A stretch of DNA of 11,121 nt from a virus: the UHGV virus genome UHGV-0151769; one strand, 5' to 3'. Below, piece by piece: positions 3,262-7,771 of this stretch. The notes beneath the pieces are model-generated. The model saw only the letters and a list, made by a program, of their open reading frames with translations. It made no database searches and was not told the origin of the DNA. A program made the translations under genes and the position numbers. How positions within the stretch are numbered: the stretch's first letter is position 1; every line of letters starts with the position of its first letter.

Positions 3262-3582
3262 ATGAATAAAAAATATGAACTGGTTGTTAAGGGGATAAAT
3301 AATTACGGGGATAAGGTTACTGTTACTGTGAAGCCGGAAGGTGACGGGCAAGCGTCGCTGTTGTTGCCAGATGTGGCGATTAGTCTTGACCGTACTGAAG
3401 GTGCCACGCTGGAGTTTTACGAAGCTGAGGCGAAAAAGCAGGCGAAGCAGTTTTTCATGGATGTTGCTGCCGGGTTATGTGAATGGAACGAACCGTTGCC
3501 GGAAAAGCGCCCCGTAGCTACCGGGAAGAATTACTTGTTCTCTGAAGATGCCGCCGTCAACACTGCGGTCAGAAAAAGATGA
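3262..3582 (+). CDS. Hypothetical protein (moron ORF A, about 106 aa); unknown function
   Basis: Starts 4 nt after the holin stop (GTG at 3259 or ATG at 3262) with GGGAGAG 7 nt upstream. Predicted soluble and charged, with no motif I recognise. Visibly more AT-rich than flanking lysis genes (by eye, not computed). Confidence 0.55.
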   Translation: MNKKYELVVKGINNYGDKVTVTVKPEGDGQASLLLPDVAISLDRTEGATLEFYEAEAKKQAKQFFMDVAAGLCEWNEPLPEKRPVATGKNYLFSEDAAVNTAVRKR

Positions 3583-4111
3583 TGTTGAATCACGTATTGA
3601 AAAACTGGAGAGCTACGTCGTTGAGCTGAATAAGAAATGGTCGATATTGGTGCCTTCTGGCGATGAAAAGCAGTTTGCTGCGTTTGACGATTATTGTCGG
3701 AAAGTGATGAGCAGAAATCTCGCAGAGTGTTTCAGTATTCATAATGATAATTTCAGTGAGCTGGAATGGGAGTGTAACCGGCCATCCTTTGTTGTATCCG
3801 GTGATGCTGGGAAAATAACCATCTCAGAAAATGGGAAAGTAACACCTCCATCGCACCAGCACAGTGAGGAGCTCATTGAATTTGCCATTGATTACCTGAA
3901 GAACAATAAAAAGCAGGGGCTGATGAAGCGCGTTGGCCGTTGCATGGGATATCTTCAGGTAGCCGCTGAGATTGAAGCGCTGGCCAGTGGTGCTGATAAG
4001 GATGCAATTGTGCGGGAGGCTCTTCTTCGTGATTTTAATACTCCACCCTTTAAAAAAGTGCCGGCTTACTGGCTTCATCCGGGGCTGACTTATCTTAAAG
4101 TGCGTATTTAG
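3548..4111 (+). CDS. Hypothetical protein (moron ORF B, 187 aa); unknown function
   Basis: ORF in the +1 frame relative to ORF A, overlapping it by 35 nt. No TMD, no signal peptide, no recognisable catalytic motif. AT-rich. Ends 36 nt before the endolysin start. The true start is uncertain; this frame is open from 3518. Confidence 0.55.
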   Translation: MPPSTLRSEKDDVESRIEKLESYVVELNKKWSILVPSGDEKQFAAFDDYCRKVMSRNLAECFSIHNDNFSELEWECNRPSFVVSGDAGKITISENGKVTPPSHQHSEELIEFAIDYLKNNKKQGLMKRVGRCMGYLQVAAEIEALASGADKDAIVREALLRDFNTPPFKKVPAYWLHPGLTYLKVRI

Positions 4112-5034: not shown

Positions 5035-5166
5035 ATGTCAGACAAACTCATAACGCTGGCGAAGATCCTCTGTGTAATTGTCGGCATTTCATTTTCACTA
5101 ATGCTGGTTGCTCTTTTTCTTTCCATGGCCTGGATGATGTTGTCTTCGTCGGGGTTGCTGGGGTGA
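5035..5166 (+). CDS. Hypothetical small single-TMD membrane protein (43 aa)
   Basis: Strong RBS (AGGGAGGA) 6 nt before the ATG. One clear TMD ([26 protein letters not shown]). The stop overlaps the Rz start (GTGA), suggesting translational coupling. Confidence 0.5.
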
Positions 5167-5636
5167 ACATAAACCGAATGCTTTCCGCGTTTATCGTTAT
5201 TCTGCTGGTGGCCTGTGGTGCGCTGTGGATGGCAACAGACCATTACCGTGATAACGCGATTACCTACAAAGCGCAGCGCGATAACAAAGCCAGTGAACTG
5301 AAGCTGGCGAACGCAACCATTACTGATATGCAGGTGCGCCAGCGCGATGTTGCTGCGCTCGATGCAAAATACTCGAGGGAATTAGCCGATGCGAGAGCTG
5401 AAAATGAAACTCTTCGCGCTGACGTTGCCGCTGGTCGTAAGCGCCTGCGGATCAACGCCACCTGTCCAGGCTCCGTGCGTGAAGCCCCCACCACCTCCGG
5501 CGTGGATAATGCAACCGGCCCCCAACTGGCAGACACCGTTACACGGGATTATTTCACCCTCAGAGAGCGGCTGATGACGATGCACAAGCAACTGGAAGGG
5601 GCACAGGACTATATCCGCACTCAGTGCCTGAAATAA
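5163..5636 (+). CDS. Rz: Rz i-spanin (inner-membrane spanin subunit)
   Basis: N-terminal TMD, then a coiled-coil region closely resembling lambda Rz as I recall it ([63 protein letters not shown]). Start is GTG 5163 or ATG 5178. Confidence 0.85.
5389..5574 (+). CDS. Rz1: Rz1 o-spanin (outer-membrane lipoprotein) nested in the +1 frame of Rz
   Basis: Entirely inside Rz in another frame. Signal peptide with lipobox (LPLVVSAC) and a proline-rich mature part ([30 protein letters not shown]) matching lambda Rz1. Confidence 0.8.
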
Positions 5637-5946
5637 GTTTTGTTGATGCGCCGTATCGTCGCTATATTCCCTCATTAACAGAGACCGCAGCCCGACAGGG
5701 AGACTCCTCTGCGCGAGTGTGCGGGGATAATTAAAAACGATGCACACCGGGTTTTTACCGCGTTAATGATTCGCGGGTTTATCCCGGTGCGATGGTGGAA
5801 GAAACAGGAAGCTGTATTACAGAAAGTGCTACTACTGTATCCCGATGCGATGTATGTAATGTGAGTCAGATAATGGCACAGGATGTGGTGATGTGGCAGT
5901 CTGGAACACAGGATATATTGTCAGAATAAGACCCGTAGGAATAAAA

Positions 5947-6273
5947 ATGAAAAGACGCCTTTTACTACTTTTTCTGTTATCTGTCCTGGCAGTGGGATGC
6001 TCACAGCAAAAAGCTGATGAGCCCCGGCAATTAGTGACGGTGTATCCACGATATCCGGAATATGCTGCAGCAAATTATATCAAGGGGCTGGTTGAGGTTA
6101 AGTTCGATATTGGTGCTGATGGGACTGTGACACGGATCGTTTTTCTCCGCTCAGAGCCTCATAATTTGTTTCGTGATGAAGTGGTGAAGGCCATGGCGAA
6201 ATGGCGATTTGAAAAGAATCGCCCCTGTCAGGGAGTGAAGAGACAATTTATCTTTACGCCGTCACGTCCCTGA
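5947..6273 (+). CDS. Prophage lipoprotein with a TonB C-terminal-like domain (108 aa); probable moron
   Basis: AGGA 6 nt upstream. Signal peptide with lipobox (LLSVLAVGC). The C-terminal part (GLVEVKFDIGADGTVTRIVFLRSEPHNLFRDEVVKAMAKWRFE) lines up block by block with the E. coli TonB C-terminal domain as I recall it ([43 protein letters not shown]). Confidence 0.7.
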   Translation: MKRRLLLLFLLSVLAVGCSQQKADEPRQLVTVYPRYPEYAAANYIKGLVEVKFDIGADGTVTRIVFLRSEPHNLFRDEVVKAMAKWRFEKNRPCQGVKRQFIFTPSRP

Positions 6274-6395
6274 TGCTTCCAGGTAGAGAGGGGCTGGACG
6301 CAGGAGAAAAATGAAAGAGCCAGCGGTTATATTTTTGTCATGGCTGACGAGGAATGATGGAAGAAGGCGTTGTATGCCACACAACGCCTCACTGT

Positions 6396-6575
6396 TCATT
6401 TCTTCTTTTTCTCTGGTGGAACCCGATGAATAAGAGTTGCACTGGTTTCCGATGAGATGGCGATATACTCGGGCAAAGTATGCTGGCAGTTTTCCAACTG
6501 GTCAAAAATACCTGCTCTCGTCTGTTGCAATGCCTGCAGCATGCGGCGGCAATGCGCCTTGCTTTTACTAACCAT
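6396..6575 (-). CDS. Hypothetical small protein (59 aa counted from the internal Met that has an RBS)
   Basis: The leftward ORF is open from 6749, but only the ATG at 6575 has a good RBS (AGGAAGGAAAG). Ends in a lysine run (PPEKKKK). No function recognised. Confidence 0.25.
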   Translation of the reverse strand: MVSKSKAHCRRMLQALQQTRAGIFDQLENCQHTLPEYIAISSETSATLIHRVPPEKKKK

Positions 6576-6636
6576 CTTTCCTTCCTCTATCAGTCGCTGC
6601 GTGAACTCATCATGTAATACCAGGTAAATGCGGATG

Positions 6637-6888
6637 TTATCGGTTTTGGCTACGCAGCATAGTACAAAACGGACAGGTGCATCCCGGGACGGGGGAGGCG
6701 TCACATGTCCCTGTGATGGTTGTTCCGGGTAATGCACTGTGTGGGGCATAAAAATGTCCGATAATTTTACTTTCTACCGCAGTTAGTTGATTCGTTGGTC
6801 CTGGTAGCACATTGGGCGAGGATTTAAATGCCAGGCAACTGAAGGATGATGTTGCAAGGGAGATAGCGAGAATATTTCTGATTTTCAT
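6637..6888 (-). CDS. Hypothetical small secreted, Cys-rich protein (83 aa)
   Basis: Leftward ORF with GAGG 9 nt upstream of the ATG. Signal-peptide-like N-terminus (MKIRNILAISLATSSFSCLA). Overlaps the next leftward ORF frame out of phase; may be one arm of a frameshifted gene. Confidence 0.3.
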   Translation of the reverse strand: MKIRNILAISLATSSFSCLAFKSSPNVLPGPTNQLTAVESKIIGHFYAPHSALPGTTITGTCDASPVPGCTCPFCTMLRSQNR

Positions 6889-7036
6889 TTGATGATGCCT
6901 CTGTGTGAAATGACGGTAAACGACGCACTTGTGCCGGCACATAATAGCAAGCACCATAATAGATCAGATTCGATTCTTGCTGTAAGTGATAATCATTCTC
7001 GTTTTCGGGTCCTTTCCGTCGATCCAACAGGTTACG

Positions 7037-7048
7037 GGGCGGCGACCT
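7037..7048. other. cosN: lambda-type 12-nt cohesive-end sequence
   Basis: Exact string GGGCGGCGACCT, preceded by ACAGGTTACG (lambda right end) and followed by CGCGGGTTTTCGCTATTTATGAAAATTTTCCGG (lambda left end), all as I recall the lambda termini. Confidence 0.9.
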
Positions 7049-7225
7049 CGCGGGTTTTCGCTATTTATGAAAATTTTCCGGTTTAAGGCGTTTCCGTTCT
7101 TCTTCGTCATAACTTAATGTTTTTATTTAAAATACCCTCTGAAAAGAAAGGAAACGACAGGTGCTGAAAACGAGCTTTTGGGCCTCTGTCGTTTCCTTTC
7201 TCTGTTTTTGGCCGTGGAATGAACA
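7049..7225 (+). promoter_or_regulatory. cosB region (terminase small-subunit binding sites and IHF site) between cosN and Nu1
   Basis: Sequence matches the lambda left-end leader as I recall it. It contains the inverted pair AAAGGAAACGACAG (7147-7160) and CTGTCGTTTCCTTT (7186-7199), consistent with R-element repeats. Individual R1/R2/R3/I1 boundaries are not assigned. Confidence 0.7.
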
Positions 7226-7745
7226 ATGGAAGTCAACAAAAAGCAGCTGGCTGACATTTTCGGTGCGAGTATCCGTACCATTCAGAACTGGCAGGAACAG
7301 GGAATGCCCGTTCTGCGAGGCGGTGGCAAGGGTAATGAGGTGCTTTATGACTCTGCCGCCGTTATAAGATGGTATGCCGAAAGGGATGCTGAAATTGAGA
7401 ACGAAAAGCTGCGCCGGGAAGTTGAAGAACTGCGGCAGGCCAGCGAGACAGATCTCCAGCCAGGGACTATTGAGTACGAACGCCACCGACTTACGCGTGC
7501 ACAGGCCGACGCACAGGAGCTGAAAAATGCCAGAGACTCCGCTGAAGTGGTGGAAACCGCATTCTGTACTTTCGTGCTGTCGCGGATCGCAGGTGAAATT
7601 GCCAGTATTCTCGACGGGATCCCCCTGTCGGTGCAGCGGCGTTTTCCGGAACTGGAAAACCGACATGTTGATTTCCTGAAACGGGATATCATCAAAGCCA
7701 TGAACAAAGCAGCCGCGCTGGATGAACTGATACCGGGGTTGCTGA

Positions 7746-7771
<26 letters not shown>
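7226..7771 (+). CDS. Nu1: Terminase small subunit gpNu1
   Basis: 181 aa, MEVNKKQLADIFGASIRTIQNWQEQGMPVLRGGGKGNEVLYDSAAV..., essentially the lambda Nu1 sequence including the N-terminal winged-HTH. Sits immediately downstream of cos and overlaps the A start. Confidence 0.95.

Follow-up and report, generated by a model that had tools for sequence, protein, structure and literature searches.

Ton boxes dock on strand β3 of TonB by β-augmentation (PMC11658791). Transporters compete for limiting TonB, and an over-expressed periplasmic TonB domain inhibits iron import, as stated in the part of PMC9841981 that cites Howard 2001. Here we analyzed a stretch of the UHGV virus genome UHGV-0151769, 11,121 nt in full (called the window in the following; all coordinates refer to it), in which a gene between the spanin genes and the packaging genes encodes a short prolipoprotein with a TonB C-terminal domain (CTD), named the TonB_C lipoprotein, and we propose tentatively that this protein may act as a natural TonB decoy.

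The closest described relative of the prophage protein is the E. coli TonB CTD (about residues 150-239), with which it shares the fold, the YP motif and the edge strand β3 and aligns without gaps at 40% identity, but it differs from TonB in carrying a lipid anchor in place of the transmembrane anchor and rod, in the replacement of R158, Q160 and R166, and in grouping with other short lipoproteins on a branch apart from TonB. The TonB_C domain family does include the protein, but by every test it is not a TonB energy transducer. The engineered periplasmic TonB fragments (Howard et al. 2001, via PMC9841981) are likewise motor-less CTDs in the periplasm and inhibit TonB-dependent transport; as presented in the citing source, they are artificial, soluble and over-expressed, whereas the prophage protein is natural, lipid-tethered, moderately expressed and only 40% identical to TonB. 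By analogy, these fragments could serve as a work-alike precedent for the proposed mechanism. Llp of T5 and Cor of phi80, N15 and HK022 are also small phage-encoded outer-membrane lipoproteins, and they inactivate FhuA from the periplasmic side. Their fold is unrelated to that of the prophage protein, and they are FhuA-specific and exclude their own kind, whereas the carriers of the TonB_C lipoprotein gene have a lambda-type J; the proposed working may be likened to that of Llp and Cor without membership in their family. Finally, Bor of lambda and Iss resemble the prophage protein as outer-membrane lipoprotein morons of the same Rz-to-cos interval that are expressed in lysogens, but they are non-homologous to it and encoded on the opposite strand, and phage 21 and Perceval have both bor and the TonB_C lipoprotein gene.

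A complete TonB C-terminal domain in a short prolipoprotein

An earlier note on this DNA had described a protein of 108 residues with a lipobox whose mature part aligns block for block with the TonB CTD, and the description held in both respects. The N-terminus, MKRRLLLLFLLSVLAVG followed by C18-SQQ, fits the PROSITE-type lipobox pattern, and the lipobox Cys is kept in the two E. coli allele classes, A and B (described below), and in most family members. By the +2 rule, the Lol system sorts lipoproteins to the outer membrane when the residue next to the lipidated Cys is not Asp. This residue is Ser in the TonB_C lipoprotein and Ser, Thr or Ala across the family, and outer-membrane sorting is therefore predicted for the protein. 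In the domain searches, the Pfam TonB_C model (PF03544) reached 49.2 bits (cut-off 24.6, E=7.3e-13) and the NCBIfam tonB_Cterm model (TIGR01352) 47.4 bits (cut-off 27.1), while the NCBIfam equivalog models of full-length TonB reached 45-69 bits against cut-offs of 265-448. The top matches in a phmmer search of PDB sequences are E. coli TonB (1u07, 2gsk_B and 2grx_C; E ~1e-14), and residues 24-103 align with TonB 151-230 without gaps, 32 of the 80 residues being identical. With the resulting numbering offset of +127, the mature part from C18 to P108 (91 residues) corresponds to TonB 145-235, roughly as long as the C-terminal fragments reported by Koedding and colleagues in 2004 and 2005 to be monomeric and to bind receptors.

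The same note had called for the TonB_C assignment to be confirmed with a profile search and a structure model, and the model agrees with the profiles. The AlphaFold2 (AF2) model, built from a family alignment of 20 sequences, has a mean predicted local distance difference test score of 87, with values of 96-98 across the domain. In Foldseek comparisons it superposes on the solved TonB CTDs (1u07, 2gsk_B and 2grx_C) with a root-mean-square deviation (rmsd) of 0.9-1.5 Å and a TM-score (TM) of 0.91-0.92, and the nearest structures are the TonB CTDs in the BtuB and FhuA complexes (0.9-1.0 Å, TM 0.92). All secondary-structure elements of the TonB CTD, a three-stranded sheet and two helices, are present in the model, including the edge strand β3 (residues 94-103), which is exposed. 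No strong fold matches other than TonB CTDs were obtained, and the BFVD search returned nothing at E<=1e-3; the claim that the protein is structurally unlike Cor and Llp is borne out by these matches. TolA domain III, which has a distantly related fold, gave a weak match only (Foldseek E>=0.1, rmsd 4-5 Å), and the prophage protein is clearly TonB-like by sequence.

The conserved residues are those of TonB as well. The invariant or near-invariant residues of the family are the same in TonB (P153, P161, Y163, P164, G186, P198, F202, W213 and F230, in TonB numbering), and Y36, P37, F53, F75, W86, F88 and F103 of the prophage protein, most of them family-invariant, correspond without gaps to TonB Y163, P164, F180, F202, W213, Y215 and F230. 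Four of the five TonB aromatic residues are identical (F180, F202, W213 and F230), and the fifth, Y215, is conservatively replaced by Phe. The mature part of the TonB_C lipoprotein is a complete, monomer-length TonB CTD. The transmembrane anchor and the proline-rich rod are absent, with the signal peptide at the N-terminus instead, and no exbBD genes lie near the gene. Cys94 (6226-6228), the sole free cysteine of the mature protein, is located at the start of β3; most alleles of the E. coli classes A and B have it, some have Arg instead, and the chromosomal homologs have other residues there. It could form a periplasmic disulfide.

Distribution, selection and expression of the gene

The TonB_C lipoprotein gene is present in 1617 of 5426 complete E. 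coli genomes (about 30%), 1225 of them carrying class A and 392 class B; a single genome can hold as many as four copies, and the carriers include O157:H7, LF82 and IAI39. Class A comprises the copies of the window, phage 21, ev017, Perceval and the PhiR phages, and the window protein is 100% identical to CPT_21_73 of phage 21 and PERCE_65 of Perceval. Class B, found in JLK-2012, the Stx1a phages and O157, encodes a protein 72% identical to that of class A. Between the two classes, which are saturated at synonymous sites (dS 1.46), the ratio of nonsynonymous to synonymous divergence (dN/dS) is 0.12, and all 83 copies examined in E. coli phages, prophages and viral contigs, as well as the window's own, are intact, with 108 residues and the lipobox. 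The gene is under purifying selection and, with the separate family described below, this marks it as functional. In the prophage of E. coli KKo009, which is the window's closest relative, frameshifts affect several tail genes, and the TonB_C lipoprotein gene is intact; a 'TIR domain-containing anti-phage reverse transcriptase' is annotated at the tail-fiber end of that prophage (15495-17099 of record L095).

When 1.84 billion representative proteins were searched and the result was extended with a profile, the family emerged as TonB_C proteins of 105-135 residues across Enterobacterales, mostly lipoproteins. Each of these short proteins is ~35-47% identical to the window protein and likewise to TonB, and in a rough neighbor-joining tree they branch apart from the genuine TonB CTDs. 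A separate lipoprotein of 152 residues (P0139), whose C-domain is 61% identical to that of E. coli TonB, clusters with the true TonBs, indicating that a lipid anchor was put on a TonB C-domain more than once. In the E. coli phage and prophage loci, the gene always lies after the spanin genes, on the late-operon strand and before the packaging genes, which come in two unrelated types, either Nu1/A with cos or an HNH gene with terS/terL; the Klebsiella prophage homologs (41-44% identical) occupy the same interval beside two further terminase types. Homologs do sit at the same position in other prophages, as the earlier note had suggested checking, and they do so with four different terminase types.

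The expression of an identical gene has been published. LF82_160/PERCE_65, annotated as 'TonB fragment' in prophage Perceval of the adherent-invasive E. coli LF82, was reported as a moron expressed 8x above the prophage background in RNA-seq, with log2 expression of 5.0-6.6 in all conditions vs 2.3-4.4 for the flanking endolysin, Rz and terminase genes and 2.3-4.3 for Rz and terminase alone, and in macrophages its log2 fold change of 0.26 is flagged as unchanged in the table (PMC9928086). Hence the gene is transcribed in the lysogen independently of the late operon, as shown for the identical LF82 gene, and its suggested moron status agrees with the silence of the flanking late genes (PMC9928086). 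Because of these RNA-seq data, the gene requires a promoter of its own. A candidate extended -10 element, TGTCAGAAT in class A and TGTTAGAAT in class B (TGTyAGAAT), is a conserved block amid otherwise diverged A/B sequence, and its class B form is the top-scoring site in a position weight matrix scan. A simple consensus scan found no full sigma-70 promoter upstream of the gene, and inspection by eye did not support a Fur box there, 8 of 19 positions matching.

A proposed TonB decoy and its alternatives

Our leading reading, which we hold tentatively, is that the TonB_C lipoprotein is a motor-less TonB surrogate that is tethered to the outer membrane, occupies Ton boxes and dampens the TonB-dependent entry of phages and colicins. 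Signal peptidase II would cut the precursor in front of Cys18, and the ~7 linker residues would tether the mature domain to the outer membrane's inner leaflet, next to the periplasmic faces of the TonB-dependent transporters. Because it has no transmembrane anchor, proline-rich rod or link to ExbB/ExbD, the domain could not transduce energy. It would bind Ton boxes by β-augmentation on its edge strand β3, as TonB does, and would thereby compete with scarce, energized TonB. Infection by TonB-dependent phages (T1, phi80 and similar), killing by group B colicins and microcins, and uptake of siderophores and B12 would be damped, and the outcome would be heterotypic exclusion or bacteriocin tolerance. 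The inhibition is probably partial or Ton-box-selective and blanket inhibition unlikely, because the gene is expressed constitutively and the equivalent of TonB 158-162 is the most variable part between the alleles.

The differences between classes A and B are concentrated at residues 31-35, equivalent to TonB 158-162 (4 of 6 positions vs 15 of 77 elsewhere, Fisher p=0.02), a region that includes Q160 and that we take to contact Ton boxes in TonB. We grade this clustering as weak evidence, the region having been picked from prior knowledge, and regard it as compatible with allele-specific Ton-box selectivity. A broader form of the decoy proposal, doubtful when taken as a whole, is that a natural TonB decoy family in ~30% of E. 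coli genomes uncouples selected transporters from TonB in lysogens and provides exclusion or bacteriocin tolerance at the shared energy-coupling step, that the allele classes differ in Ton-box selectivity, and that the chromosomal relatives serve the cell alike.

Several observations weigh against the decoy proposal. TonB residues implicated in receptor contact are changed in the prophage protein (R158 to T, Q160 to Y and R166 to Y), and a gene that is on constitutively in lysogens, among them pathogens dependent on siderophores, sits uneasily with a strong general inhibition of TonB. The protein would not exclude its own kind, because the J tips of the carrier phages are lambda-type: their C-termini are 57% identical to lambda J and 55% to that of 434, and none matches the phi80, HK022 or N15 type. 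Self-exclusion of FhuA-using phages was accordingly not supported, and any exclusion would hit other phages, unlike that by Cor. The PADLOC defense models gave no match to the gene, and neither a function of the gene nor the idea of a lipid-anchored TonB decoy in nature is described in the full-text literature searched; the genome paper on phage 21 is silent on the gene. Moreover, homologs with 43-52% identity are ordinary chromosomal genes in other Enterobacterales, with no phage genes nearby: those of Raoultella and Enterobacter adjoin lacI-lacZ, that of Serratia grimesii lies between ycgN and dsbB-nhaB, and those of Erwinia, Pantoea agglomerans and Salmonella Choleraesuis are in other non-phage settings. 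Such fixed chromosomal sites hint at a cellular role unrelated to phages. Because the homologs are ordinary chromosomal genes in other genera, the TonB_C lipoproteins are a family of bacterial envelope proteins carried as cargo by temperate phages.

The foremost alternative, although we consider it unlikely, is that the protein is an envelope or virulence lipoprotein whose TonB_C fold binds a ligand other than a Ton box (peptidoglycan, OmpA/Lpp or a factor of the host animal) and gives the lysogen a Bor-like benefit without competing with TonB. It shares its moron slot with bor, which likewise encodes a small outer-membrane lipoprotein; the chromosomal loci of the homologs in several genera are of a housekeeping type, suggesting a cellular role; TonB_C domains can take other ligands, as in the complex of the FusB CTD with ferredoxin, which is among the fold matches; and the three contact residues of TonB named above are lost. 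However, the conserved residues are exactly those of the TonB core and the YP motif, the closest structures are receptor-bound TonB CTDs, and there is no homology to Bor.

We see a smaller chance that the lipoprotein is a trap for TonB itself, pairing with the TonB CTD or with the periplasmic domain of ExbD and holding it at the outer membrane, which would give a decoy-like phenotype through another target. The two proteins share the TonB fold, and TonB CTD fragments crystallize as dimers (1u07, the top fold match). Models of TonB dimers exist, and they are the remaining basis for this alternative. At 40% identity to TonB, though, a conserved dimer interface is not assured, and the short tether would keep the domain at the outer membrane, far from ExbD.

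Less probable again is a modulator of iron or metal homeostasis that biases which TonB-dependent transporters are energized, possibly together with the prophage SitABCD, and has no part in defense. The sitABCD genes are present in phage 21 and Perceval, and both sitABCD and the TonB_C lipoprotein gene are expressed in the LF82 lysogen. Against this, sitABCD is absent from the corresponding region of four other carriers examined, so we take the co-carriage of the two as linkage in one lineage, and the expression of the gene is unchanged in macrophages, as given above (PMC9928086). As a side observation, sitABCD (21967-24502 of the phage 21 record, L094) is a moron encoding a TonB-independent Fe/Mn ABC importer, which suits an idea of blocking gates and compensating elsewhere.

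The label 'Rz-like spanin' attached to phrog_1267 would make the protein a lysis accessory or spanin-like protein, which is very improbable. The match to phrog_1267 is full-length (E=5e-43), and the gene always directly follows the lysis cassette on the late-operon strand; yet the Rz/Rz1 pair upstream is complete, the product is globular rather than proline-rich and lacks a C-terminal transmembrane segment, contrary to what defines an o-spanin or a u-spanin, transcripts of the gene are made in lysogens in which endolysin and Rz are silent, and no lysis genes lie near the chromosomal homologs. The label is also on an unrelated ORF of 81 residues, C87 of phage Stx2 II (2493-2738 of record L092), which overlaps the conserved intergenic segment upstream of the gene. 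The spanin reading was rejected on the architecture, the intact Rz/Rz1 pair and the expression in lysogens, and the label is probably an annotation error spreading through databases. That the gene is a decaying, functionless fragment of a captured tonB, which only the annotation wording favors ('partial tonB-like', 'TonB fragment'), is scarcely credible and effectively refuted by the selection analysis, given also the intact E. coli copies, the acquired lipobox and the family branch apart from the true TonB CTDs.

Surroundings of the gene and implications

The positions of the gene, the parts of its product and the neighboring features are collected in Table 1.

Table 1. The TonB_C lipoprotein gene and neighboring features, in window coordinates
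Feature	Position	Strand	Remarks
TonB_C prolipoprotein gene	5947..6273	+	ATG at 5947, 108 codons + stop
Signal peptide	residues 1-17 = 5947-5997	+	lipobox pattern
Lipidated Cys18 (predicted)	5998-6000	+	
Short linker	residues 19-25	+	
TonB C-terminal domain	residues 26-108 = 6022-6270	+	equivalent to TonB 153-235
Candidate extended -10 element	5919..5927	+	20-33 nt before start codon
Rz i-spanin	5163..5636	+	Pfam Phage_lysis E=2e-47; end of lysis cassette
Rz1 o-spanin	5389-5574, embedded in Rz	+	Pfam Rz1 E=4.4e-20
Conserved lambdoid intergenic segment	5647..5812	+	not specific to the TonB_C lipoprotein gene
Inverted repeat GGCGTTGT-7 nt-ACAACGCC	6366..6388	between convergent genes	read from sequence
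Convergent 59-aa gene, WP_000253883.1	6396..6575	-	RefSeq annotation; phrog_4843 E=3e-46
Candidate 83-aa secreted Cys-rich protein (MKIRNILAISLATSSFSCLA...)	6637..6888	-	ORF; coding status uncertain
cosQ	7007-7013	+	phage 21 annotation mapped by blastn
cosN, 12-base cohesive end GGGCGGCGACCT	7037-7048	+	phage 21 annotation mapped by blastn
Nu1 small terminase subunit, first packaging gene	7226..7771	+	Pfam Phage_Nu1 E=2.4e-101

The placement of the gene between Rz/Rz1 and cos in the earlier note is correct, Rz ending at 5636 and cosN beginning at 7037. The note had further compared the location to that of the bor moron of lambda. The Rz-to-cos interval is indeed the same, but bor is not displaced by the gene: in phage 21, bor on the minus strand is followed by the identical TonB_C lipoprotein gene (CPT_21_73), and the two occur together in 13 of the 39 class A loci examined. 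In the window, bor is absent after Rz, unlike in phage 21. To the left of cosN, the window and the right end of phage 21 agree at 98.5% identity over 5647-7036, while identity to phage 21 is only 66% over 7037-7579, and comparison of the two sequences places a recombination junction exactly at cosN (7037).

The intergenic segment at 5647-5812 is ~90% conserved between classes A and B vs 73% for the coding region. It matches 432 phage records, including lambda, where it lies upstream of bor, and Stx2 phages without the TonB_C lipoprotein gene, and it was rejected as a part of the gene unit, being a generic lambdoid segment; a role as a promoter region of bor or as a linker for recombination is possible. 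Rfam gave nothing at the locus, this segment included, at the gathering threshold or at E<=1. Two other candidates were dismissed: orf45 (5792-5929) as a partner gene, which is lost in class B and in which the A/B indels are not multiples of three, and the small RNA (sRNA) svsR, which maps to the cI gene.

Downstream, the convergent 59-aa gene is found in all class A loci and in class A only, and class B has an unrelated 66-aa gene there; an obligate downstream partner of the TonB_C lipoprotein gene was therefore rejected. The repeat between the convergent genes could terminate transcription of the minus-strand 59-aa gene, and perhaps does so in either direction; this hairpin was not among the calls of the terminator scan. 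The coding assignment from the 59-aa gene to cos differs between records, the phage 21 annotators having called small plus-strand ORFs there. The candidate 83-aa protein has a signal peptide (MKIRNILAISLATSSFSCLA) and a Cys-rich C-terminus (CDASPVPGCTCPFC), and a promoter-like site lies at 6909-6881. The ORF is not in the RefSeq annotation, has no Pfam or PHROG match, and is confined to seven phage records, all of them class A carriers.

Elsewhere in the window, positions 1-179 on the plus strand match the Rfam sRNA STnc100 (78.7 bits vs a gathering threshold of 47, E=7e-16), the 5' end being cut by the window edge, upstream of a gene for a NanS-like esterase. This gene (402-2363, +), itself upstream of the holin gene, encodes a protein of 653 residues with the domains DUF1737, SASA (sialate O-acetylesterase) and DUF6645, presumably resembling the NanS-p esterases of Stx and lambdoid prophages. 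In the lysis cassette, between the DUF1327 and lysozyme genes, a protein of 187 residues is encoded at 3548-4111 (+), with a match to phrog_1085 (E=6e-119) and no Pfam match.

In public records the gene product is named 'TonB family protein', 'TonB fragment' or 'partial tonB-like membrane protein encoded within prophage CP-933N'. The TonB_C assignment, these names and the classification as a moron were all public beforehand, and what is new relative to the literature searched is the proposed function as a natural lipid-anchored TonB decoy; the labels 'TonB fragment', 'partial tonB' and 'Rz-like spanin' are misleading. If the decoy proposal is true, nearly a third of E. coli strains would carry a prophage gene that alters the TonB-dependent gates, which would bear on susceptibility to TonB-dependent phages, and hence on the choice of therapeutic phages, on sensitivity to group B colicins and siderophore-microcins, and on the uptake of siderophore-antibiotic conjugates and iron acquisition in infection. 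It would also represent an exclusion mechanism aimed at the energy coupler common to many receptors, and it would offer a natural reagent to probe Ton-box recognition. Even if the decoy proposal is wrong, the TonB_C lipoprotein gene is a widespread, expressed and strongly conserved moron whose product has a precisely known fold.

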